A DNA stretch of 36,151 nucleotides from a virus (lineage: Duplodnaviria > Heunggongvirae > Uroviricota > Caudoviricetes), in IMG/VR virus record IMGVR_UViG_2585427765_000017; one strand, 5' to 3'. The position numbers and the translations under genes are program-made. A model generated the notes under the pieces. The model did not search any database, was not told where the DNA came from, and worked only from the letters and a program-made list of their open reading frames with translations. This document shows positions 4,928 to 17,838 of the stretch, piece by piece; the stretch's first letter is position 1; each line of letters begins with the position of its first letter.

Positions 4928-5161
4928 ATGTTAAAATCAACTCTTATTGCTAAATGCCTTTATCAAAATCGCATGGTAAGCAGCATTTCAATAGGCGAGT
5001 CTGCAGTTAAAAGTATTTTCGAAGAGTACTTTTCCGGGCATGATTTTAATAAATGGAATACTAAATTACCGCCAGCAGTTTCAACGCGTATTCTGAAAGC
5101 AACTGAAAGAGCAAGTACAATTCGCGTTAACTATTTCATTAAAGATTTGTGGGATCTTTGA
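4928..5161 (+). CDS. Hypothetical 77-aa protein, opposite in orientation to the surrounding leftward operon
   Basis: Strong RBS (CTCAGGAGGGTGA) directly before the ATG; AT-rich coding; 3' end overlaps the convergent 135-aa gene by about 23 nt. No family recognised. Confidence 0.35.
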   Translation: MLKSTLIAKCLYQNRMVSSISIGESAVKSIFEEYFSGHDFNKWNTKLPPAVSTRILKATERASTIRVNYFIKDLWDL

Positions 5162-5546
5162 TATCCACAGAGCCTAAAGTATGTGCATATGGATGTGCTA
5201 TTGTGCGCCCCTGTAAATTTGCATCGTTTTCTAAATCTTTTGATTTCAACAGAACATCAGCAAGACTCTGAATCATGCAGAGATAATCAAAAGCAGTTGC
5301 CGTTTCTGTTCTGATTGCTGAAATAACATGACCATTCAGGCAAACAGAAATTACCCGTTCATCAATATCGTTTTCCTGTTTTTGATTATCAGAACCATAT
5401 AGCCCTGAAAAAGCATTGCGCACATTACGAACCATATTATCGATGGTTTCTTTTTTGGTGTATGCCGGGTCAATTTTCACCAGACTATCACCGAGTGTCG
5501 TTGCAGCAATTATCTGGATTTCTTTTGGTAAATCTTTAAATTCCAT
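5139..5546 (-). CDS. Hypothetical 135-aa protein between ydfC-like gene and the DicF-like region
   Basis: Clean ORF with ATG start in the leftward early operon; no recognisable motif; absent from the Qin dicB operon as I remember it. Confidence 0.45.
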   Translation of the reverse strand: MEFKDLPKEIQIIAATTLGDSLVKIDPAYTKKETIDNMVRNVRNAFSGLYGSDNQKQENDIDERVISVCLNGHVISAIRTETATAFDYLCMIQSLADVLLKSKDLENDANLQGRTIAHPYAHTLGSVDIKDPTNL

Positions 5547-7021: not shown

Positions 7022-7345
7022 ATGAAAAAAGATAACTATTCATTCAAACGAGCTTGTGCTGTTGTCGGTGGGCAATCAGCAATGGCTAGGCTTTTAGGTG
7101 TATCTCCTCCAAGCGTAAATCAATGGATCAAAGGTGTACGTCAGTTACCTGCTGAGAGATGTCCTGCGATTGAACGAGCAACAAAAGGTGGTGTCCTGTG
7201 TGAAGAACTTCGTCCTGATGTTGATTGGACATACTTACGACGCTCGTCATGTTATTCGCAGAATATGTCGATGAAGCAACCAAATGACGAAAACGATCAT
7301 ACCCGAAGCATCAAGAGGCAAATGATTCATGAAAATCAAACATGA
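7022..7345 (+). CDS. Cro/YdaS-like HTH regulator
   Basis: MKKDNYSFKRACAVVGGQSAMARLLGVSPPSVNQWIKGVRQLPAERCPAIE is a Cro/C1-type HTH resembling Rac YdaS. ATG at 7022 with GGAG RBS is preferred over the track GTG at 7001, which would lie at the predicted transcription start. Confidence 0.7.
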   Translation: MKKDNYSFKRACAVVGGQSAMARLLGVSPPSVNQWIKGVRQLPAERCPAIERATKGGVLCEELRPDVDWTYLRRSSCYSQNMSMKQPNDENDHTRSIKRQMIHENQT

Positions 7346-7754
7346 GCACATCCGCATGGCGATGAATGCCTGGGCATACCCTGATGGTGAGAAAGTTCCT
7401 GCAGCTGAAATAGCCCGGACTTATTTCGAACTGGGGATGACGTTCCCTGAACTGTATGACGACAGCCATCCGGAAGCCCTGGCTCGCAATACCCAGAAAA
7501 TTTTCCGCTGGGTAGAGAAAGACACCCCTGATGCAGTTGAAAAAATTCAGGCGTTGTTACCAGCGATCGAAAAGGCAATGCCACCTTTGCTGGTGGCCAG
7601 AATGCGCAGCCACAGTTCAGCTTATTTTCGGGAGCTGGTGGAGACGCGGGAGCGACTGGTGAGAGACGCTGATGATTTTGTCGCAGTGGCAATCGCCGGT
7701 TTCAATCAGATGAACCGTGGTGGCCCGGCAGGAAATGCTGTGGCAGTACATTGA
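7329..7754 (+). CDS. YdaT-like (CII-like) regulator
   Basis: MKIKHEHIRMAMNAWAYPDGEKVP... matches my recollection of the Rac YdaT N-terminus; immediately follows and overlaps the Cro/YdaS-like gene. Confidence 0.6.
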   Translation: MKIKHEHIRMAMNAWAYPDGEKVPAAEIARTYFELGMTFPELYDDSHPEALARNTQKIFRWVEKDTPDAVEKIQALLPAIEKAMPPLLVARMRSHSSAYFRELVETRERLVRDADDFVAVAIAGFNQMNRGGPAGNAVAVH

Positions 7755-9359: not shown

Positions 9360-9652
9360 GAGTGAGAGTCTATATCGCCGGTCCAATGACCGGGTATAAA
9401 AATTTCAACCGTGAGGCGTTTCACAATGCGGAAGAGGAACTGAAACGGGAAGGGCATACCGTCTTAAACCCGGCAGTACTTCCGGACGGGCTGACACAGC
9501 CGCAGTACATGGATATCTGCATGGCGATGATTCGTTGCGTGGATGCGATTTACATGCTGCAAGGCTGGCAGCGGTCAGCAGGCGCTAAGGCGGAACTGGC
9601 GCTGGCGGAGAAGCTGGGGCATGCAGTTATTTTCCAGGAGGAGGTACAGTGA
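9356..9652 (+). CDS. Nucleoside 2-deoxyribosyltransferase-like small protein (DUF4406-like)
   Basis: VYIAGPMTGYKNFNREAF...GHTVLNP...YMLQGWQRSAGAKAELALAEKLGHAV pattern typical of this phage-encoded family; GTG start after CAGGAGG. Confidence 0.55.
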   Translation: MRVRVYIAGPMTGYKNFNREAFHNAEEELKREGHTVLNPAVLPDGLTQPQYMDICMAMIRCVDAIYMLQGWQRSAGAKAELALAEKLGHAVIFQEEVQ

Positions 9653-9924
9653 ATATCGACGCAACAATGACGATTGGTACGGCCCTCAATACGGGGCTGG
9701 CGCTTCTTGGTTGGTGCTACATCATGTTCTGCTCATGGCGGTGGCTGTCACTGATGTTACTGAAAGAATGGAATAAACGCTGTAAACAGACGCAGCGGCA
9801 GAAGGCAATGAATGCGTTTTTTGAGACCTTCGATATTGACAGTATAGAACCAGGAGAGCCAGCTCGCGTGATTAGCAGAGGTGACGTTGTAATTCTTGTA
9901 TACCGGAGTGAAGAGAAAGCATAA
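9649..9924 (+). CDS. Hypothetical small membrane protein
   Basis: 91-aa ORF with one hydrophobic segment (LALLGWCYIMFCSWRWLSLMLL); start overlaps upstream stop. Confidence 0.4.
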   Translation: MNIDATMTIGTALNTGLALLGWCYIMFCSWRWLSLMLLKEWNKRCKQTQRQKAMNAFFETFDIDSIEPGEPARVISRGDVVILVYRSEEKA

Positions 9925-10038
9925 TCCAAATCTGAATAATTAAATCCAGCACTGTAAATAAAATTTAATCCTTAACCGGAGGGATTTCTGCCCCCTCAGA
10001 ACATCAGGAGGCCGCCCGAAAGGGCGGTGGAGATAATA

Positions 10039-10545
10039 ATGGAAATAACTAAAGAACGATTATTGGAAATAGCAAATCTTAGTGAAAGGGCATTAAGTGA
10101 TGGGAGGATTATTTCTCCTGATGCTTATGAATCAGTTACAAGTATAGAAATAATAACGATGGCCAGGATGCTTCTTGCCCGCTTCAAAAAAGAATATAAA
10201 AAACAGGTAGATAGCAATGCTAATATATATGATATTTTGGACTGTTGGGGAGCTTGGGCTGTAGCTGGAAATAGTTCTATCAACTGGCAGCAAGTGGCTG
10301 ATAAATATAAAGATGTTGTGCCTCATGGTAAAAAATTGCGTCGCCAGAGCAGCGATGATGAAGGGCGAGTGATTGATGAGTGGATATTGAGACTCAGACA
10401 ATATAAAATAGATGAATATGAGTTAATTGTTGCCCACTTTGTAATAGGCGTTTCTTTGAGAAAGATCGCAAAAAGAAAGAAATGTGCGGATGGGACTATT
10501 AGAAAAAAATACAAGCAGCGATGGGAGTATTGGAGGGAGTATTAA
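10039..10545 (+). CDS. Q-like antiterminator homologue (QuuD/PF06530-like), AT-rich, second Q-type gene in the window
   Basis: Motifs ILDCWGAWAVAGNSSINWQ, DDEGRVIDEWILRL, YELIVAHFVIGVSLRKIAKRKKCADGTIRK resemble (from memory) the ERWGAWA...DDD...YVVG... pattern of QuuD-type Q proteins. ATG at 10039 with GGAGA RBS; visibly AT-rich compared with flanks. Confidence 0.5.
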   Translation: MEITKERLLEIANLSERALSDGRIISPDAYESVTSIEIITMARMLLARFKKEYKKQVDSNANIYDILDCWGAWAVAGNSSINWQQVADKYKDVVPHGKKLRRQSSDDEGRVIDEWILRLRQYKIDEYELIVAHFVIGVSLRKIAKRKKCADGTIRKKYKQRWEYWREY

Positions 10546-10566
10546 TGCTCTAACTGTTAGAGCTAA
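10546..10566. terminator. Hairpin between convergent genes (possible bidirectional terminator)
   Basis: Perfect inverted repeat GCTCTAAC-tg-TTAGAGC sits between the stop of the Q-like gene and the stop of the minus-strand membrane-protein gene. Confidence 0.35.
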
Positions 10567-11783
10567 ATAAAAATCTTCGCAAGAAATATTCCTGCTGCAA
10601 TAGAACTTGGTAGCCAAGCCAAATACATAAATAACTTTATTGTATTATCACATTTGGTTTGGCTCTTTGATAGTTCATATAGAGCCTCATTAATGTCCTT
10701 CTTAAGGTCTTCTGGATAATTTTCATTGTTTTTTAGAAAAGGCATAAATGCTATATCTTTAGCATGGTAAATATGTTTTAATTGTTTATCCTGATTGAGT
10801 AATACCATATATAAAATAAGTGAGCTTAACAATACACCTAATAAAACGAGTAACATTTCAGATCTTGATGTTAGTTTTATAATCCCGAAGGATGCCAGTA
10901 AAGACACAGGGATTGATAATACTTTTGTCGTCAAATCAGTAATAAGTTTTGAGATTTTTTCAGCAAACTCTGCTTCAGACTTCGCAATTTCTTTTCGTGC
11001 CTTATGGAATGAAAAACCACTCATATACGTGGATAAATTATTTTCAAATAGCTTTACAAATTTATCCCAATGGCAAATTAGGTTTTCAAAATCATATTTG
11101 TTATCGAGAATAAACTCCACTATGGTATTCCTGAAAATACCTGTTTTTTCTGCTTGATGGGGGATTTGGGCGTTTTTTACATCTAAAAGACTCTTGATGA
11201 TAGCATCATCAATGTCATTTATATTGAGCATCTTAGGTGTAATGCACGTTTCTAAAATAATAGATGTTGATTTTGCGTCAGAATCTTTCACGAAAACTAA
11301 ACGATAATTTGAAGATTCCGATTTTGTATCGTGAAAGTGCGCAATCTCAGCCAGGGAAGAAATAATTGCACAAATTTTCTCGATTTTTATAATTTCGTCC
11401 GGTTTACTTGAATCAGACGGATGAAAATCCTCATCGATTATGTAATACTCTTTAGGAATTACACCTTTCTTGAGTGAGTTTATACAAAGGAACTCTTGAA
11501 TTGAGTTATAGAAACGTTCTGCTCCATTTTTAGGGGATATGTAAGTGTATGAGAATTTATCTCCAATTTTAATTGGGTGTGATTTTAAATCGTCTTCGTC
11601 AATGAACTCATTATTAATATCAACATCTTCAAAATAACCGTAGGCTTTATGTGAATTTACTAACAAGTTTACCAAACGTTGATTGTTATTATTTATTTCA
11701 ACAGTTGCAGAAAAAGAACGTCCGTCGAATTGGGGCTTCGATGATGCTCTATAAAAATCTACAACCGTTGATAAATTAGCCAT
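10563..11783 (-). CDS. Protein with about 280-aa soluble N-terminal region and three predicted C-terminal transmembrane helices; second gene of AT-rich operon
   Basis: Hydrophobic segments VLSIPVSLLASFGIIKL, MLLVLLGVLLSSLILYMVLL and IKLFMYLAWLPSSIAAGIFLAKIFI near the C-terminus. ATG (MANLSTVV) overlaps the upstream gene stop as ATGGCTAA; the track GTG start at 11795 is less likely. K/N/I/D-rich composition. Confidence 0.7.
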   Translation of the reverse strand: MANLSTVVDFYRASSKPQFDGRSFSATVEINNNNQRLVNLLVNSHKAYGYFEDVDINNEFIDEDDLKSHPIKIGDKFSYTYISPKNGAERFYNSIQEFLCINSLKKGVIPKEYYIIDEDFHPSDSSKPDEIIKIEKICAIISSLAEIAHFHDTKSESSNYRLVFVKDSDAKSTSIILETCITPKMLNINDIDDAIIKSLLDVKNAQIPHQAEKTGIFRNTIVEFILDNKYDFENLICHWDKFVKLFENNLSTYMSGFSFHKARKEIAKSEAEFAEKISKLITDLTTKVLSIPVSLLASFGIIKLTSRSEMLLVLLGVLLSSLILYMVLLNQDKQLKHIYHAKDIAFMPFLKNNENYPEDLKKDINEALYELSKSQTKCDNTIKLFMYLAWLPSSIAAGIFLAKIFI

Positions 11784-12918
11784 TTTCTTTTCCACTATCC
11801 CTTATTTTTAAATTTTCTTTTACCACAGCGCTTAGTTTAGCCTTAAATTCAGCTGGTAAGTTTGTAAATGATAATCTTCCAGTTGTTTCATCGTACCACA
11901 CATCATCATCAGCTGTCACTCCAAGGAGAGACTTGTCAAAATTAAATCCAATCTCATCAGTCTTAAAGGTGATGTTTTTAATGTCTTTCAACGCCCGTTT
12001 ACTGATAACAAATTCAGTTGGAATTCTCACATTTTCACTATTTAAAAAAAGAATTAATTCGTGAGTGTAAGATTCTTTGGTAGACTCATCTAAATTTGTC
12101 ATGTGACGTGCTGCAATTACTTCAATATCACTCAATCGGGCTGACAAATTTTTAGCTGCTTGTGTGTCTAAATATGCAATAACGTCATGTTTAAATCTAT
12201 TGGCACATGCTTTAAGTTCTGGTTTTTGGTTAAAAAATTGTTTTGCGACAGTTGGTAGTTTTTTTGTGGCTTTTGCTGCTGCAAGTGATTTGTCGCATCC
12301 TATTGCTGCAATAAAATATGCTGATGTGGATTGACCCACTCCTTTACTTACGAAACTTAGATAACTTAAGTCAATTTTTTCAGACTCATCAGCAGTTTTA
12401 TATTGTTGGTAGAGATTGAAATTTATTCTTGCTGCTTGGTGTATTTTGGATAGATCCAAATGGATCATTTCTTCAGGTTCGAGTTTGTTGCTGATAGTAA
12501 CACCATTTTTCTTTTTAATCATTGCAATTAAAAAGAATTTATTGTTATTTACAATATAGTCACAAAACACAATAAAACCACCAGATGACCAAGGTTCTTC
12601 TTTGGCTTTTTTTACAAGTTGCTTCATCACTTCAATAGAAAAAGGCACAAACTTTTCATTAATGTTATCCTCTGACTGAGAATACTCTTCAAATATTGAT
12701 GGCACAGGCCCTTGTTCTGTTTTTTCCTCTTTAAAAACGCCATAATGTGCAGAATTGCCTTTGGTTCCATATAAAGATGAAATGTCTTGAATAAGTTTTA
12801 TAACAATTGGATTGGTTTTATCGAGAGGAGTGGATCTAAGCTGATACGGCTTAGAAAAATCAAAATCCTTTTTTGCTTCTTTAATTAGTTCATGAACGAT
12901 AACTTGCTTAATTTCCAT
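11776..12918 (-). CDS. NdpA/YejK-like (NA37 nucleoid-associated protein family) homologue; first gene of AT-rich operon
   Basis: VIVHELIKEAK near the N-terminus, GGFIVFCDY and YLSFVSKGVGQSTSAYFIAAIG motifs parallel YejK IALHQLIK, GGFVLFCHY, YLTFLKGRVGRKVADFF as I recall them; AGGTGA RBS 8 nt upstream of ATG. Needs HMM confirmation. Confidence 0.65.
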   Translation of the reverse strand: MEIKQVIVHELIKEAKKDFDFSKPYQLRSTPLDKTNPIVIKLIQDISSLYGTKGNSAHYGVFKEEKTEQGPVPSIFEEYSQSEDNINEKFVPFSIEVMKQLVKKAKEEPWSSGGFIVFCDYIVNNNKFFLIAMIKKKNGVTISNKLEPEEMIHLDLSKIHQAARINFNLYQQYKTADESEKIDLSYLSFVSKGVGQSTSAYFIAAIGCDKSLAAAKATKKLPTVAKQFFNQKPELKACANRFKHDVIAYLDTQAAKNLSARLSDIEVIAARHMTNLDESTKESYTHELILFLNSENVRIPTEFVISKRALKDIKNITFKTDEIGFNFDKSLLGVTADDDVWYDETTGRLSFTNLPAEFKAKLSAVVKENLKIRDSGKENG

Positions 12919-13192
12919 ATTGAAAATATCACCTATGTTATTGTTAGATCGTTTGTGATTTTTTTACCATCACAACAACGACACAAAATCATTAATGCGT
13001 ACGCAAAAATTTTGAATAATGAGTTAATCAATGTCAATAGTTAAACACACTACCGCTGTAGAGTTGTTGTCATTAAATTGCGTCATAAGTAGAATTGCTG
13101 CGGGTGCTTGAGGCTATCTGTCTCAGGCATGAACACCAAAAGGCAGATAGATAAAAGCCCCACCCGACTATAAATCGAAGTGAGGCCCCTAT

Positions 13193-13405
13193 ATGCTCGT
13201 CACATATAGATTGCCTCTTACGGACCGAAAGGTCAAGGAGAAGCAGGCTATGAAGCAGCAAAAGGCGATGTTAATCGCCCTGATCGTCATCTGTTTAACC
13301 GTCATAGTGACGGCACTGGTAACGAGGAAAGACCTCTGCGAGGTACGAATCCGAACCGGCCAGACGGAGGTTGCTGTTTTCGTAGACTACGAATCTAGAG
13401 AGTAA
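13193..13405 (+). CDS. mok: Mok-like overlapping reading frame of the hok locus
   Basis: 70-aa frame that starts upstream of, and terminates with, the hok coding sequence, as in hok/mok/sok loci. Confidence 0.5.
   Translation: MLVTYRLPLTDRKVKEKQAMKQQKAMLIALIVICLTVIVTALVTRKDLCEVRIRTGQTEVAVFVDYESRE
13250..13405 (+). CDS. hok: Hok/Gef-family type I toxin (51 aa)
   Basis: MKQQKAMLIALIVICLTVIVTALVTRKDLCEVRIRTGQTEVAVFVDYESRE is a near-exact Hok-family toxin sequence (HokD/RelF-like from memory). Confidence 0.85.
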   Translation: MKQQKAMLIALIVICLTVIVTALVTRKDLCEVRIRTGQTEVAVFVDYESRE

Positions 13406-13414
13406 GAGTGACCT

Positions 13415-13501
13415 GGCGGGAGAGTAATCTCCCGCCACCTCTGATGTGTCGGCATCCTCAACGCACCCGCACTTAACCCGCTTCGGCGGGTTTTGTTTTT
13501 T
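13415..13501 (+). terminator. hok mRNA 3' structures: 9-bp perfect hairpin (fbi-like) plus intrinsic terminator
   Basis: GGCGGGAGA-gtaa-TCTCCCGCC at about 13415-13436 immediately after the hok stop; then AACCCGC-ttcg-GCGGGTT with a T-run at about 13475-13501. Confidence 0.5.
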
Positions 13502-13573
13502 CTGGTCGTTCTGGTTTACAATCCATCCGTCAGCCTGAACAACTGGCACCTGCTGCGCCAGCAGAGAAAACAG

Positions 13574-13852
13574 ATGGCGCACGATACCAAATTTTACAAT
13601 TCGGATAACTCTGCCGCCCCTGCCAGCAGGCACGGGCGGCGTTCTCATGCATTCAAATCTGACTGGTATCAGCACGACCCCTGCACCGAAGAACAGGCTG
13701 AATGGCTGATTCAGCGCTACCGCAGACACGGATACGAGATTAAGAAAGCCCTCAGCCTCGATTATCGTCACTGGATAATCTTCGTCAGGCTCCCTTATTC
13801 CGAACGCCCACCGCGTCCGTCCCGCACATTCCAGCAACGCATCTGGAGGTAA
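13574..13852 (+). CDS. Hypothetical nin-region protein (internal Met of track ORF 13493..13852)
   Basis: ORF MAHDTKFYNSDNSAAPASRHGRRSHAFKSDWYQHDPCTEEQAEW...; stop 1 nt before the next gene start. No family recognised. Confidence 0.4.
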   Translation: MAHDTKFYNSDNSAAPASRHGRRSHAFKSDWYQHDPCTEEQAEWLIQRYRRHGYEIKKALSLDYRHWIIFVRLPYSERPPRPSRTFQQRIWR

Positions 13853-13853
13853 C

Positions 13854-14912
13854 GTGCGGGTATTACTTCGACCTGTTCCGGTACCGGAACTTGGGCTGGT
13901 GGTGCTAAAACCGGGCCGTGAATCCATGCAGGTATTTCATAATCCTCGAGTTCTGGTGGAGCCGGAACCGAAAAGCATGCGCGGTCTGCCGTCCGGAGTC
14001 GTTCCTGCCGTTCGCCAGCCATTGGCGGAGGATAAATCATTACTGCCATTTTTCAGCGATGAGCGGGTGATTCGTGCTGCTGGTGGTGCTGGTGCACTGT
14101 CTGACTGGCTGTTACGCCACATTAAATCCTGCCAGTGGCCTCATGGTGACTACCATCACAGCGAAACCGTCATACATCGTTACGGTACCGGTGCAATGGT
14201 GTTGTGCTGGCACTGCGACAACCAGCTGCGTGACCAGACTTCCGAATCACTCGGGCAGCTTGCTCACCAAAATTTGTCAGCATGGATGATTGACGTCATA
14301 CGCCATGCAATGAATGGCACGCAGGAGCGGGAATTATCGCTGGCTGAATTATCCTGGTGGGCAACCATAAATAACGTAGCGGACGCACTACCGGAGACGG
14401 TATTACGTCGTTCTCTGGGGTTACGTGCGGAAAAAATCCGCTCGGTGTACCGCGAAAGCGACATCATACCGGGAGAGCAGACAGCCACCAGCATCCTGAA
14501 ACAGCGCACAAAAAATCTTGCGCCGTTGCCTCACGCCCACCAGCAACAGAATCCACCACAGGAAAAGATGGTGGTCAGCATTGCCGTTGATCCGGAGTCA
14601 CCGGCTCAGTATCTCCAGCGCCAGAAACCACAACGGGAAGATATGCCTGTATACACGCGTTGGGTAAAAACGCAGAAATGCATGACGTGTGGCAATCAGG
14701 CAGATGATCCGCATCACATCATTGGTCATGGACTGGGAGGGATGGGAACAAAGGCTGATGATTTGTTTGTTATTCCGCTGTGCCGTAAATGCCATAGCGA
14801 ACTACACGCCGGGGTAAAAGATTTTGAAGAAAAACACGGCAGCCAGCTGTTGTTGCTGATTCGTTTTTTAATGCACGCGAGAAATTCGGGTGTCCTGAAG
14901 TGGAAAGCATGA
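13854..14912 (+). CDS. DUF968-family protein (YdfU-like) with C-terminal Cys/His cluster
   Basis: C-terminal CMTCGNQADDPHHIIGHGLGG...LCRKCHSELH pattern; GTG start 5 nt after GGAGG; immediately upstream of rusA as in lambdoid nin regions. Confidence 0.6.
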   Translation: MRVLLRPVPVPELGLVVLKPGRESMQVFHNPRVLVEPEPKSMRGLPSGVVPAVRQPLAEDKSLLPFFSDERVIRAAGGAGALSDWLLRHIKSCQWPHGDYHHSETVIHRYGTGAMVLCWHCDNQLRDQTSESLGQLAHQNLSAWMIDVIRHAMNGTQERELSLAELSWWATINNVADALPETVLRRSLGLRAEKIRSVYRESDIIPGEQTATSILKQRTKNLAPLPHAHQQQNPPQEKMVVSIAVDPESPAQYLQRQKPQREDMPVYTRWVKTQKCMTCGNQADDPHHIIGHGLGGMGTKADDLFVIPLCRKCHSELHAGVKDFEEKHGSQLLLLIRFLMHARNSGVLKWKA

Positions 14913-15278
14913 ATGACTGAACGCATAGAATTTGTTTTGCCTTACCCGCCAACGGTGAACACTTACTGGCGACGTCGTGGCAGCACATATTTTGTATCAA
15001 AAGCCGGTGAGCGTTATCGCCGTGATGTGGCGCTTATTGTTCGCCAGCAGCGGCTGAAATTAAACCTGTCCGGAAGGCTGGCGATAAAGATTATTGCAGA
15101 GCCACCGGATAAACGTCGTCGTGACCTGGACAATATCCTGAAAGCACCACTGGATGCGCTGACGCATGCCGGACTTCTCATAGACGACGAGCAGTTTGAT
15201 GAAATTAATATTGTGCGCGGTCAGCTCGTTCCTGGGGGGCGGCTGGGCGTGAAGATTTACAAAATTGAGAGTGAGTGA
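14913..15278 (+). CDS. rusA: Holliday junction resolvase RusA
   Basis: LPYPPTVNTYWRRRG...RRRDLDNILKAPLDALTHAGLLIDDEQ parallels the RusA PWPPSNNRYY...RRRDLDN...DAL pattern; 121 aa. Confidence 0.85.
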   Translation: MTERIEFVLPYPPTVNTYWRRRGSTYFVSKAGERYRRDVALIVRQQRLKLNLSGRLAIKIIAEPPDKRRRDLDNILKAPLDALTHAGLLIDDEQFDEINIVRGQLVPGGRLGVKIYKIESE

Positions 15279-15829
15279 TCGTAAATATGATATATCCGGA
15301 AATTACAGGCAAAAGCGGCGAGCATTTACGTCTAAAAACGCTGGAAGCCGTCTGGATCCAGGGGAAATTACGGATGTGGGGGCGTTGGTCGTATATAGGT
15401 GGTGGCAAACCAGGAAATATGTTCAATCAGTTGCTGGCATCCAAAAAACTGACAAAAACCGCGGTCAATGAAGCCCTGCGTAGAATCAGGGAGTCAGGGA
15501 TTGATAAACCAGAGCTGGAAGCATTCTTGCGAGAGATGATCGCTGGCAGACAGAAGAGCTGGTTGTCTCACTGTACTGATGCAGAGGCGTTACGCATTGA
15601 TGGGGTGATAAGTAAAGCGCTTGCACGTTATCCTGGATTGATTGATATCCTGCGGCAAAGGTACGAAGGGCGGGGGATGAGTAAACGCAAAATGGCTGAA
15701 TTGTTGAATGAGGTTCACCCTGAGTGGTGCTATGCAACATGCCGCAATCGTATAGATATGTGGCTGAGAATAGCTGAGTTTATTCTGTATCCACTGATGC
15801 GAGATGCATTTTCTTTTACTGACGCTTAG
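15275..15829 (+). CDS. Late antiterminator Q candidate (canonical position)
   Basis: About 180-aa ORF directly after rusA and directly upstream of a short non-coding stretch ending in a strong intrinsic terminator (tR'-like), the standard Q-PR'-tR' arrangement. Sequence family not confirmed. Confidence 0.5.
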   Translation: MIVNMIYPEITGKSGEHLRLKTLEAVWIQGKLRMWGRWSYIGGGKPGNMFNQLLASKKLTKTAVNEALRRIRESGIDKPELEAFLREMIAGRQKSWLSHCTDAEALRIDGVISKALARYPGLIDILRQRYEGRGMSKRKMAELLNEVHPEWCYATCRNRIDMWLRIAEFILYPLMRDAFSFTDA

Positions 15830-15996
15830 AATCTGGAGGGCGTTTGTTGTTGCACGAAGAGGATTTTTGGCTGGTAGTAAGGTTTGTGCAGTTTTAGAAA
15901 AAAAGCTTGTATTTTTAGCCATAAACTGTTTCAATCCAGCTACGCTTCGCAAAGCTGTACCGCGAGGCGAATAGCAGACATGGACACCTGAAAGAA

Positions 15997-16019
15997 CCCG
16001 CTTTATGCGGGTTTTTTTA
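15997..16019 (+). terminator. Intrinsic terminator (tR'-like) downstream of Q
   Basis: CCCGC-tttat-GCGGG followed by TTTTTTT at about 15997-16019. Confidence 0.6.
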
Positions 16020-16141
16020 TGCCTGAAAAACGGCACAGAACATTAAACGCGCTGGTAGTTGTGAATACTGGTCTTTCAGCTTGCTGGCTTTTTCGACAAG
16101 AGGTATTGGTATGTCACGTTAACCAGAAAAGGGAAAAAGGC

Positions 16142-16339
16142 ATGCTAAAACAGCAGGATATGACCGAAACCGCCAGAGTGGTGTTTAATGAATTAAGCGT
16201 CACCGAACCGGCGACCGTCGGGGAAATTGCGCAGAATACTTACCTTTCACGCGAACGCTGCCAGTTAATACTGACTCAGCTTGTTATGGCGGGTCTGGCA
16301 GATTATCAGTTCGGTTGTTACAGACGCCTTCCGCAGTGA
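16142..16339 (+). CDS. Small hypothetical protein (65 aa), possibly winged-helix DNA-binding
   Basis: Internal Met of track ORF 16019..16339; MLKQQDMTETARVVFNELSVTEPATVGEIAQNTYLSRERCQLILTQLVMAGL; sits between tR' and the methyltransferase. Confidence 0.35.
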   Translation: MLKQQDMTETARVVFNELSVTEPATVGEIAQNTYLSRERCQLILTQLVMAGLADYQFGCYRRLPQ

Positions 16340-16489
16340 AGGCTTTTTAATTTGTGGTAATGGGCGGCTGGTGGGTGTTAGCGGCACCTGCCAGCCATCT
16401 GCTCATGCGTTGGGGTCACAAGCAAACCTCAGGCCCATCTGCTTTGCGCAAAAGCGGTATGAGCCTATCAGAGAAGTGCTTATTGATCT

Positions 16490-17539
16490 ATGATTAATAC
16501 TGTAAAAATATCCAGTTGTGAGTTAATCAACGCTGATTGCCTGGAGTTTATCCAGACCTTACCGGAAAACTCTGTCGATCTGATAGTCACAGACCCGCCA
16601 TATTTTAAAGTGAAGCCCGAGGGCTGGGATAACCAGTGGGAGGGCGACGATGATTACCTGAAATGGCTGGACCAGTGTCTGGCGCAGTTCTGGCGGGTAC
16701 TGAAGCCTGCCGGAAGTCTTTACCTGTTCTGTGGTCATCGCCTGGCATCTGACACCGAAATCATGATGCGTGAGCGCTTTAATGTGCTGAACCACATTAT
16801 CTGGGCGAAGCCGTCCGGACGCTGGAACGGGTGCAATAAGGAAAGTCTGCGGGCGTATTTTCCGGCAACAGAGCGCATTCTGTTTGCAGAACATTATCAG
16901 GGACCGTATCGCCCGAAAGATGATGGCTATGTGGAGCAGGGGCGCGAGCTAAAACAGCACGTCATGGCCCCGCTGATTTCTTACTTTCGTGATGCGCGTA
17001 AATCACTGGGAATAACGTCAAAACAGATAGCGGAAGCCACCGGAAAGAAAAACATGGCTTCGCACTGGTTTGGTGCCAGTCAGTGGCAGTTACCGAACGA
17101 GGGTGATTACAATAAATTGCAGGCGTTGTTTGCGCGTGTTGCGGCAGAAAAACATCAGCGCGGGGAACTGGAAAAGCCACACCACCAGCTGGTCAGCACA
17201 TACAGTGAGCTGAACCGGCAGTATACGGAACTGCTGAGTGAATATAAAAATTTGCGGCGGTATTTCGGTGTGACGGCGCAGGTTCCGTACACCGATGTCT
17301 GGACGCATAAACCGGTGCAGTACTATCCAGGGAAACATCCGTGCGAAAAACCGGCAGAAATGCTGCAGCAGATAATCAACGCGAGCAGTCGTCCGGGAGA
17401 CCTGGTTGCAGATTTTTTTATGGGTTCAGGTTCAACGGTAAAAGCGGCGATGGCACTGGGGCGTTGTGCGATTGGTGTTGAGCTGGAGACCGGACGTTTT
17501 GAACAGACAGTCAGGGAAGTTCAGGATTTAATCGTTTGA
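16490..17539 (+). CDS. DNA methyltransferase (N6-adenine/N4-cytosine class, DPPY motif), apparently orphan
   Basis: Motif IV DPPY near the N-terminus (LIVTDPPYF) and motif I FxGxG near the C-terminus (DFFMGSGST). No restriction endonuclease gene identifiable adjacent. Confidence 0.85.
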   Translation: MINTVKISSCELINADCLEFIQTLPENSVDLIVTDPPYFKVKPEGWDNQWEGDDDYLKWLDQCLAQFWRVLKPAGSLYLFCGHRLASDTEIMMRERFNVLNHIIWAKPSGRWNGCNKESLRAYFPATERILFAEHYQGPYRPKDDGYVEQGRELKQHVMAPLISYFRDARKSLGITSKQIAEATGKKNMASHWFGASQWQLPNEGDYNKLQALFARVAAEKHQRGELEKPHHQLVSTYSELNRQYTELLSEYKNLRRYFGVTAQVPYTDVWTHKPVQYYPGKHPCEKPAEMLQQIINASSRPGDLVADFFMGSGSTVKAAMALGRCAIGVELETGRFEQTVREVQDLIV

Positions 17540-17588: not shown

Positions 17589-17664
17589 GGCCCTTTAGCT
17601 CAGTGGTGAGAGCGAGCGACTCATAATCGCCAGGTCGCTGGTTCAAATCCAGCAAGGGCCACCA
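17589..17664 (+). tRNA. ileZ: tRNA-Ile (anticodon CAU, lysidine type; ileX/ileZ-like)
   Basis: GGCCCTTTAGCTCAGTGG...ACTCATAATCG...GGTTCAAATCCAGCAAGGGCCACCA: acceptor GGCCCTT/AAGGGCC, anticodon loop CUCAUAA, encoded CCA; close to E. coli ileX as recalled. Confidence 0.8.
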
Positions 17665-17671
17665 TCACATA

Positions 17672-17748
17672 CCGCCATTAGCTCATCAGGATAGAGCGCC
17701 AGCCTTCGAAGCTGGTTGCGCGGGGTTCGAGTCCTCGATGGCGGTCCA
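17672..17748 (+). tRNA. argN: tRNA-Arg (anticodon UCG)
   Basis: Cloverleaf folded by hand: acceptor CCGCCAT/ATGGCGG, anticodon stem CCAGC/GCTGG with loop CTTCGAA, T-loop TTCGAGT, encoded CCA. C1-G72 start is unusual. Confidence 0.7.
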
Positions 17749-17761
17749 TTATCTGTACCCT

Positions 17762-17838
17762 GCGTTGTTAGCTCAGCCGGACAGAGCAATTGCCTTCTAA
17801 GCAATCGGTCACTGGTTCGAATCCAGTACAACGCGCCA
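17762..17838 (+). tRNA. argO: tRNA-Arg (anticodon UCU)
   Basis: Acceptor GCGTTGT/ACAACGC, anticodon stem ATTGC/GCAAT with loop CTTCTAA, T-loop TTCGAAT, encoded CCA. Confidence 0.8.

Follow-up and report, generated by a model that had tools for sequence, protein, structure and literature searches.

A long-form Q21/933W-family antiterminator homologue and a conserved 12-bp site flank an exchangeable, convergent cargo slot in Rac/Qin-type prophages

Results

The Q homologue

The 36,151-nucleotide stretch of viral DNA considered here (IMG/VR record IMGVR_UViG_2585427765_000017, Caudoviricetes; referred to throughout as the window) carries a gene for a Q-type antiterminator homologue, a convergent AT-rich pair of genes directly behind it and, beyond that pair, one copy of a 12-bp sequence, GCGTACGCAAAA, that accompanies this Q subfamily from locus to locus. 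The coordinates of these features and of their neighbours are given in Table 1.

A first-pass annotation had picked out the open reading frame (ORF) at 10027-10545, reading WGAWA, DDEG and YELIVAHFVIGVSLRKIA in its translation, and had taken it for a second, QuuD/Q21-type Q gene that shares the AT-rich composition of the adjacent cassette. The ORF and its motifs are as described, and profile searches place it in the family proposed: the score for Pfam PF06530 (Phage_antitermQ) is 88.6 bits, where the gathering cut-off is 26 (E = 3.6e-25; amino acids 66-163, profile positions 3-100 of 118), and PHROG 79 'Q-like' is matched with E = 5.6e-25, PF06530 being the Q21/933W family (bioRxiv 10.1101/651190). 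The RefSeq product name is already 'antiterminator Q family protein'. The canonical position after rusA is indeed occupied by another Q-like gene, and the GC content is 0.373 for the ORF and 0.325 for the cargo, against 0.51-0.52 in the flanking backbone; on these counts too the earlier reading holds. By family membership the ORF encodes a homologue of the Q21/933W antiterminators, and an antiterminator function is predicted for the window protein on the same basis.

Counted from the GTG at 10027 on the + strand, the ORF has 172 amino acids. The ATG at 10039 is likelier to be the true start than this in-frame upstream GTG, since MEITKERLL is the start of every homologue and the PGAP/RefSeq gene (168 amino acids) begins at the same codon. 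A GC-rich hairpin, GGCCGCCC-GAAA-GGGCGGT (10008-10030), directly precedes the start codon of Q and includes part of a GGAGG. With no run of T behind it, the hairpin is not a terminator; an effect on translation or on the stability of the RNA is possible.

The family motifs WGAW, DDEG, YELIxAHF, SLR and C..G..RK are all found in the window protein, whose C-terminal helix-turn-helix (HTH) has the family-invariant residues SLR...C..G..RK and whose Q domain is 59% identical to the Q of phage mEp460. Against the PDB, phmmer returns Q21 as its sole match (E = 0.004), and the top 11 Foldseek matches are all Q21, with a probability of up to 1.0 over about 85 aligned columns, an E-value of only 0.07 and template modelling (TM) scores of 0.35-0.40. 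The AlphaFold model (AF2) has a mean predicted local distance difference test score (pLDDT) of 59.6 and is confident for residues ~67-150 only. Alignment to Q21 residues 19-98 takes in helix H1, with its WGAW, and the torus-forming H1-H2-H3 segment, which is similar in length and in its basic residues. Ahead of this domain stands an N-terminal extension that matches phrog_3323, an unannotated PHROG, at E = 6e-15, and where pLDDT falls below 50. A tblastn search of 50,697 phage records found no counterpart of the extension (one match, E = 0.04), and the idea that it might be a known domain or a separate phage protein was dropped in view of this empty search, the unannotated PHROG and the low-confidence AF2 model.

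Long and short forms

Homologue lengths are bimodal, 113-125 or 168-174 amino acids, with none between. Apparent intermediate-length forms in other genera were rejected, their partial matches being in-frame read-through upstream of the real MRDMYEV start. The short class, about 59% identical to the long one over the Q domain, includes the sole Q of phage mEp460 and that of Klebsiella phage P7641, both in the canonical position after DUF968; in more than 100 enterobacterial phages the short form is the only Q. (In phage mEp460_4F5, the ORF at L004 3988-4977 is annotated 'Phage antitermination protein Q' and matches a DUF968/HNH-type protein at E = 5e-81; the real Q is next to it, at 4995-5336, and the label is probably a mis-annotation.)

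The long class was found in 68 of 5,426 complete E. coli genomes and also in Salmonella, and all long-Q loci are in Rac/Qin-type prophages. Their order is replication genes and DUF977, long Q, convergent cargo, hok, nin-type genes and a second, late Q, with hok and the late Q present in each locus that offers enough sequence. The late Q partner comes from one of three families: DUF1133, PF03589 or a 229-amino-acid type. The long Q of the window thus lies about 5 kb upstream of the late region, with cargo, hok, DUF968, rusA and a second Q between, and away from the early/late junction that is the hallmark position of a Q gene.

An invariant 12-mer beyond the cargo

Both GCGTACGCAAAA and its palindromic 8-bp core, GCGTACGC, occur once in the window. 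The 12-mer came to light where the first-pass annotation had advised a search for a qut-like site, near a candidate promoter at about 13000. Each of the first 10 loci compared holds one copy, on the + strand and beyond the cargo, a short way past its first gene. Over the window and 119 further loci, viral contigs and genomes from Raoultella, Enterobacter, Klebsiella, Citrobacter, Erwinia, Providencia and other genera, there are 109 exact copies in 120 sequences, all on the strand of Q and 0.7-3.8 kb downstream of it; none was found in the 723 kb upstream of Q or on the opposite strand of these sequences. Loci without an exact copy are mostly truncated, and three of them hold variants with one or two mismatches. 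Among long-Q loci with four unrelated cargos the 12-mer is the sole invariant block.

The association also holds in reverse. A scan that began with the motif found a Q of this subfamily upstream in 90 of 95 informative viral contigs, and in related prophages that lack this Q neither the 12-mer nor even its 8-bp core is present. Thus the association between Q and site is tight and reciprocal, and the simplest account would be that this Q subfamily recognises the 12-mer, a binding that we infer. The recognition helix and GCGTACGCAAAA are both essentially invariant, and a test for co-variation between them was uninformative.

The cargo slot

In the window only 17 bp separate the stop codons of Q and cargo, so the physical link to the AT-rich cassette claimed in the first-pass annotation stands. 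A fixed tie to this particular cassette does not: at least four unrelated convergent cassettes lie behind the Q gene in long-Q loci, and because various cargos follow the same Q, the gene is better seen as the conserved left flank of a slot. Homology between long-Q loci breaks within the last ~15 Q codons, and the C-terminal tail varies with cargo type. As these last codons travel with the cargo, recombination must occur inside the Q gene itself.

A corresponding layout is general in enterobacterial lambdoid phages and prophages with the short Q (L004-L005 and L025-L119): a short PF06530 Q, 0.7-3.8 kb of convergent AT-rich cargo, GCGTACGCAAAA and the late genes. Example slots are L004 4995-6990 and L005 4995-7880, alongside 10039-13008 of the window. 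A survey of the intervals from the Q stop codon to the site, 93 of them distinct out of the 119 further loci, gave 154.6 kb of coding sequence on the - strand versus 4.2 kb on the + strand, at a median GC content of 0.35. Among the cargos sampled are Kiwa (KwaB, E = 1e-143), PD-Lambda-5, a NACHT/metallophosphatase protein (PDC-S60) and a Gabija/PARIS-like ABC-ATPase, and many others match nothing. Since many slot genes, those of the window included, have no known function, they become defence candidates, and the interval between Q and GCGTACGCAAAA looks like a defence hotspot with sharp flanks.

The cargo of the window is itself a candidate defence pair. It consists of a YejK/NA37-type nucleoid-associated protein and a 410-amino-acid protein with a C-terminal hydrophobic region. 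DS-1 is a validated defence system with a YejK domain (PMC13092281). The window pair has this domain and the two-gene layout in common with DS-1, but the NCBIfam models DS1_1 and DS1_2 (NF053868/NF053869) give it 101 and 105 bits, below their equivalog cut-offs of 330 and 315, which makes it a distant relative only. No PADLOC model matches the window cargo or the Q. Klebsiella phage P7641 has the same cargo family at the equivalent place after its short Q, with identities of 49% and 37% to the two window proteins.

Site context in short-Q phages

In short-Q loci the sequence after GCGTACGCAAAA follows a regular order: a -10-like TATYGT 2-3 nt on, a further 4 nt, TGTTAAGAGTGG...CCACAcaGCTTAA, then a GC hairpin with a T-run, and the late genes. 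The TTAAG/CTTAA stem shows compensatory changes, read directly from the sequences, to ATAAG/CTTAT in at least six distinct loci and to TTAGG/CCTAA in three, and G·U extensions of the leader stem pair on the + strand only. Compensatory changes and strand-specific G·U pairing together indicate a transcribed leader, probably a small late-promoter leader RNA. RNAalifold found no stem in the leader region, owing to indels, and the stem was tested directly instead; Rfam holds no known family for the short-Q leader. The leader lies ~15-75 nt past the 12-mer (for example L004 6886-6955 and L065 9277-9345), and an intrinsic terminator comes next. By its geometry the region looks like a qut site and late promoter with a Q-loading region and a terminator.

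Leftward, the best sigma-70-type promoter has its -35, TTGCGT, inside the 12-mer in 49 of the 60 contexts with a short Q and in 5 of the 10 with a long Q, and its -10 is a varied TAnnnT 17 nt further on, in cargo-specific DNA. Read in this way, the 12-mer overlaps a predicted cargo promoter as well.

State of the gene

The ratio of nonsynonymous to synonymous substitution rates (dN/dS) of the long family is 0.25 over 14 distinct alleles, which differ by a synonymous divergence (dS) of ~0.5-0.9. The extension by itself gives 0.36 and the Q domain 0.20, with an even ~0.20 for each of its parts, torus-equivalent, H3-H4 and HTH. Purifying selection acts on the long family, and the RNA-polymerase-contacting part is not selectively lost in the long form. 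Intact copies make up 19 of 23, and two are split. In these two, L010 (~7340-7350) and L024 (~7220), which belong to different lineages, the long Q breaks in the same place, at WGAW or shortly ahead of it, which leaves an N-terminal peptide and an ORF the size of a short Q; in L010 the cause is a G6-to-G7 slip. The split could be a sequencing error, decay or a slippery switch.

The window allele has an A7 run where intact alleles have A8. The resulting -1 frameshift starts inside the predicted recognition helix and, directly after GTIRKK, swaps the conserved tail ...IQAAMGVLEGVLML for YKQRWEYWREY, changing the last 14 residues. The A8-to-A7 change is common to the window and one near-identical genome (L001) and could be a homopolymer sequencing error. 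The frameshifted protein of the window is WP_077761968.1, and WP_244578304.1 is an example of an intact long Q; prophages of strains 602354 and EPEC E2348/69 have intact alleles. The window lineage also has Ser at the nearly invariant Cys108. The gene product of the window may have lost some or all of its activity.

The right flank of the slot

The predicted cargo promoter of the window, TTGACA-17-CAAAAT, ties for the best sigma-70 match in 9600-16500; it differs from the TTGCGT-type promoter of most loci and is stronger. Facing rightward is a weak candidate promoter, TTAATG-17-AATAAT, whose geometry is like that of the short-Q late promoters and whose register, in a scan with a position weight matrix (PWM), is not conserved among long-Q loci. 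A residual resemblance to the short-Q late promoter of L104 extends as far as GTTAA. Long-Q loci retain just the 12-mer, preceded by TA[AG]T, and no pause element could be assigned in the window near 12997-13008.

Homology with other loci resumes at ~13089, and hok follows the 12-mer in all long-Q loci. Homologous hok regions are present in 4,943 of 5,426 E. coli genomes. A possible promoter read by eye, TTGTTT-18-TACAAT (~13490-13523, -10 at ~13518-13523), has its -35 in the T-run of the hok terminator. Further on, the late Q of the window, outside the module, also passes PF06530, weakly, with 27.8 bits against the gathering cut-off of 26, and bears only the RefSeq name 'DUF1133 family protein'. 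DUF1133 looks like a distant branch of the Q21 family on this evidence, and the late Q is a possible downstream beneficiary of the module. The nearest terminator-like site to ~16000 in our scan of the + strand is at 16326-16343. Three transfer RNA (tRNA) genes (17589-17835; Ile, Arg and Arg in a near-identical RefSeq locus) lie downstream of a DNA methyltransferase gene and ahead of the lysis genes, and Rfam finds only sok and these three tRNAs in the window.

Where a related prophage lacks the long Q, the cargo that precedes hok is different and co-directional. In the loci seen it is the Paa adhesin of an O157:H7 strain (L121 4366-5818), a DUF5677 protein (L123 4564-5589) or an IS21 element (L122 2535-4837). 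Since such relatives share the backbone from hok to the late Q, the long-Q unit is an optional module in a variable slot.

Table 1. Features of the window around the long-form Q gene, in window coordinates.
Feature	Position	Strand	Basis
Long-form Q21/933W-family antiterminator homologue	10039-10545	+	PF06530; PGAP start and product; MEITKERLL; Foldseek against PDB
N-terminal extension, long form only, ~58-65 amino acids, two helices predicted at low confidence	10039-10221	+	phrog_3323; bimodal lengths
Q domain: WGAW (H1), basic torus-equivalent segment, DDEG, YELIxAHF, C-terminal HTH SLRxIA...CxDGTIRK	10222-10515	+	Pfam match at amino acids 66-163; Q21 alignment
A7 run (A8 in intact alleles), -1 frameshift	10503-10509	+	DNA alignment; protein tails
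Invariant 12-mer with palindromic 8-bp core, candidate Q-binding element	12997-13008	+	Motif counts (see text)
Convergent AT-rich two-gene cargo, distant DS-1 relative	10563-12918	-	Pfam NA37; NCBIfam
YejK/NA37-type nucleoid-associated protein	11776-12918	-	Pfam NA37, E = 2e-51
410-amino-acid protein, C-terminal hydrophobic region	10563-11795	-	Cargo pair
Predicted cargo promoter, start site inside the 12-mer	13009-13037	-	Sigma-70 match 10/12; PWM 10.6
Weak candidate rightward promoter, 12-mer in spacer	12992-13020	+	Read from sequence, putative
hok/sok locus, right flank of the slot	13067-13501	+	Promoter and terminator scan; Rfam sok RF01794, 109 bits
hok promoter	-35 at 13067, -10 at 13090-13095	+	Promoter scan
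hok mRNA/sok	13102-13252	+ (locus)	Rfam sok RF01794
hok ORF	13250-13405	+	
Strong intrinsic terminator of hok, ~470 nt downstream of the 12-mer	13475-13501	+	Terminator scan
Late Q, DUF1133 type, canonical position after DUF968 and rusA	15275-15829	+	Pfam DUF1133, E = 1.8e-101; PHROG 753 'Q-like'

Discussion

Our analysis shows a self-contained module of three parts: the Q gene, which would be its trans-acting part, the slot for convergent AT-rich (defence) cargo and the 12-bp site GCGTACGCAAAA. That the protein acts in trans at 12997-13008, beyond the cargo, is a proposal to which we give about an even chance. The C-terminal HTH would bind the 12-mer, which lies in the divergent promoter region between cargo and hok. 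Q made from early transcripts would act in trans beyond the cargo, so that nothing need be transcribed through the cargo, and because Q would work in trans, the gap between the gene and its site can tolerate backward-facing genes. In the window a complete copy of the module sits some 5 kb upstream of the real late switch, in the variable slot that precedes hok, which is why the prophage has two Qs.

What could binding at the 12-mer achieve? Two consequences, either or both, could follow. Q could load on RNA polymerase that starts rightward near the site and could take it past the hok terminator into DUF968, rusA and the late Q gene. Alternatively, Q could occlude the cargo promoter, of which the site covers the start site in the window and the -35 in most loci, and would thereby turn the defence cargo off in lytic growth.

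More generally, and with considerably more doubt, one might picture the whole Q subfamily as a 'transcriptional bridge' that provides a cost-free slot for defence genes, with the cargo promoter off at lysis. The long form would then be a second copy placed in the early operon, giving a two-step Q cascade, in which the long Q serves the nin genes and the late Q and the late Q serves the late genes, together with an extra defence slot. We would sooner bet against this wider picture than for it.

Several observations weigh against action of the long Q through the 12-mer. The constraint on the Q domain is about five times looser in the long form than in short Qs (dN/dS 0.20 versus 0.04), the N-terminal extension is unexplained as well as poorly modelled, and the frameshift together with the Cys108-to-Ser change may inactivate the window protein. 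In long-Q loci the TATYGT -10, the leader hairpin and the adjacent terminator are lost, and rightward -10-like hexamers stand in no fixed register, while Q loading normally needs a precise spacing of site and pause. Most related prophages lack the module and retain the same backbone of hok, DUF968, rusA and late Q; expression of the late Q is therefore not generally dependent on the module, and transcription of DUF968, rusA and the late Q gene could start from the TTGTTT-18-TACAAT promoter, with no need of transcripts that arrive from upstream. The loss of leader and -10 and the existence of module-free relatives weaken the first of the two consequences in particular. Moreover, the link between Q and site could be partly mere linkage of neighbouring DNA.

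The losses just described are what would be expected if the long Q were a plain DNA-binding regulator that represses or tunes the cargo promoter through the 12-mer, with no RNA polymerase loading or antitermination and with the extension serving, for example, dimerisation. The 12-mer and the cargo promoter are all that long-Q loci have retained; the site overlaps the -35 of that promoter, or its start site in the window; the palindromic core GCGTACGC suits a symmetric dimer; and the related backbone functions without the module. However, the torus-equivalent and H3-H4 parts, which in Q21 contact RNA polymerase, are as constrained as the HTH, and WGAW and DDEG are invariant. This even constraint over the polymerase-contacting regions weakens a pure-repressor reading, which we consider unlikely while keeping it in serious consideration.

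Improbable, in our view, is that the long Q is a hitch-hiking relic, a block of Q, cargo and site that recombined ahead of hok from another lambdoid phage, is kept mainly as a left flank for cargo exchange and is decaying in the window. The frameshifted allele of the window and L001, the two split copies with their poly-G slip, the fivefold looser constraint than in canonical Qs and the recombination within the gene, whose last ~15 codons follow the cargo type, would all fit such a history, and many Rac/Qin-type prophages are defective. A dN/dS of 0.25 over alleles so far diverged is nevertheless unlike neutral decay, 19 of the 23 copies have stayed intact, and the 12-mer is unchanged in every long-Q locus, amid surroundings that cannot be aligned. 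Since 12 bp is too short for a recombination flank, a working pair of protein and site is favoured. The relic explanation suits the frameshifted window allele better than it suits the whole family. The first-pass annotation had offered regulation of the island, redirection of host or prophage transcription and a decayed remnant as possible roles; at the level of the family the selection, the intact copies and the invariant site argue against a plain remnant and are compatible with both regulatory roles, and the window copy may be impaired by its frameshift.

It is very improbable that the protein acts away from the module altogether, whether by backing up or modulating events at the DUF1133-type late promoter (15830-16140) or by antiterminating host transcription broadly, in the manner of AntQ. 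The DUF1133 protein is a distant PF06530 relative, and AntQ of Gifsy-1, when over-expressed, acts broadly (PMC4825925). But the lone 12-mer of the window, like its lone 8-bp core, is distant from the late promoter, and a specific partnership with the late Q is unlikely because the late Q of a long-Q locus can come from any of three unrelated families; AntQ, for its part, is of another family and is the late Q of its own prophage. Scarcely credible, finally, is a Q-like protein that serves as third component, sensor or regulator, of the NA37-type defence pair. The genes do abut, with 17 bp between stops, and both are AT-rich, but the same Q (71-87% identical) stands beside at least four unrelated cargos in long-Q loci, Qs of the short form beside dozens, and the same cargo family stands beside a short canonical Q in P7641. 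Cargo swapping effectively refutes the idea.

If Q does act through the 12-mer, the arrangement would explain why anti-phage systems gather at one place in lambdoid phages, since transcription has a natural break between Q and its site. It would also provide a simple sequence rule for finding cargo, which would lie between a Q of this subfamily and GCGTACGCAAAA. A prophage with one Q acting after another would give a textbook switch a regulatory layout not described before, and silencing of an adjacent defence promoter by Q would show how a prophage escapes harm from its own cargo at induction. If the gene is a relic after all, the conserved 12-mer still wants explanation.

Comparison with known systems

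The annotation of the Q gene is ordinary; its class, placement, candidate site and cargo slot are apparently undescribed, as far as we could find. The literature searched contained nothing relevant on QuuD, the long form, a serial arrangement of two Qs in one prophage or a Q-linked defence hotspot, which is no proof of novelty.

AntQ of Gifsy-1 is a prophage Q-like protein that has been studied outside the late-switch role, beside a small structured RNA at the late promoter (PMC4825925). It differs from the window protein in being Gifsy-1's own late Q, in belonging to a different, larger family and in not being a second copy, and was therefore rejected as a precedent for a second Q. Lambda N is an arginine-rich peptide that binds the RNA of nut (boxA/boxB), whereas the window protein would be of the Q-family DNA-binding type; the likeness, in taking early transcription beyond terminators, would be one of analogy only. 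Lambda Q (Pfam PF03589) has its Q-binding element (QBE) between the -35 and -10 of PR', much like the geometry that we propose for the short Qs: the site immediately ahead of the -10, another -10-like element where the transcript starts, and a terminator before the late genes. However, lambda Q is of an unrelated family and fold, and PR' comes directly after the Q gene with no cargo between.

Q21 of phage 21 (PDB 6P18/6P19/6P1A, 6JNX) is the best match to the predicted fold, and the two proteins have in common the Pfam family and a C-terminal DNA-binding region of HTH type; the part of Q21 to which the Q domain aligns includes H1 (WGAW), the torus-forming segment and the start of H3 (DDxG). 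Their identity is only ~23-25%, and Q21 lacks the ~58-residue N-terminal extension. Q21 has a long-looped HT[loop]H, whereas this subfamily has a plain HTH and a C-terminal part ~45 residues shorter. The site of Q21 consists of two direct 8-bp repeats, in contrast to the 8-bp palindromic core of the candidate site here, and unlike the gene for Q21 the Q gene of the window is away from the late promoter.

QuuD (YbcQ) of the DLP12 prophage of E. coli K-12 is, we assume, a small Q of PF06530 type with WGAW, next to which the backward-facing moron nmpC presumably lies, ahead of the lysis genes. We take QuuD to be the late Q of DLP12, with no N-terminal extension and more distant in sequence. The short Qs of 113-120 amino acids (for example mEp460_4F5 VUD37853.1 and that of P7641) have the same invariant HTH as the window protein and the same layout of Q, convergent cargo and GCGTACGCAAAA. 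Each is, however, the only Q of its phage and follows DUF968/rusA, as is canonical; the N-terminal extension is missing from the short Qs, and their constraint is much tighter.

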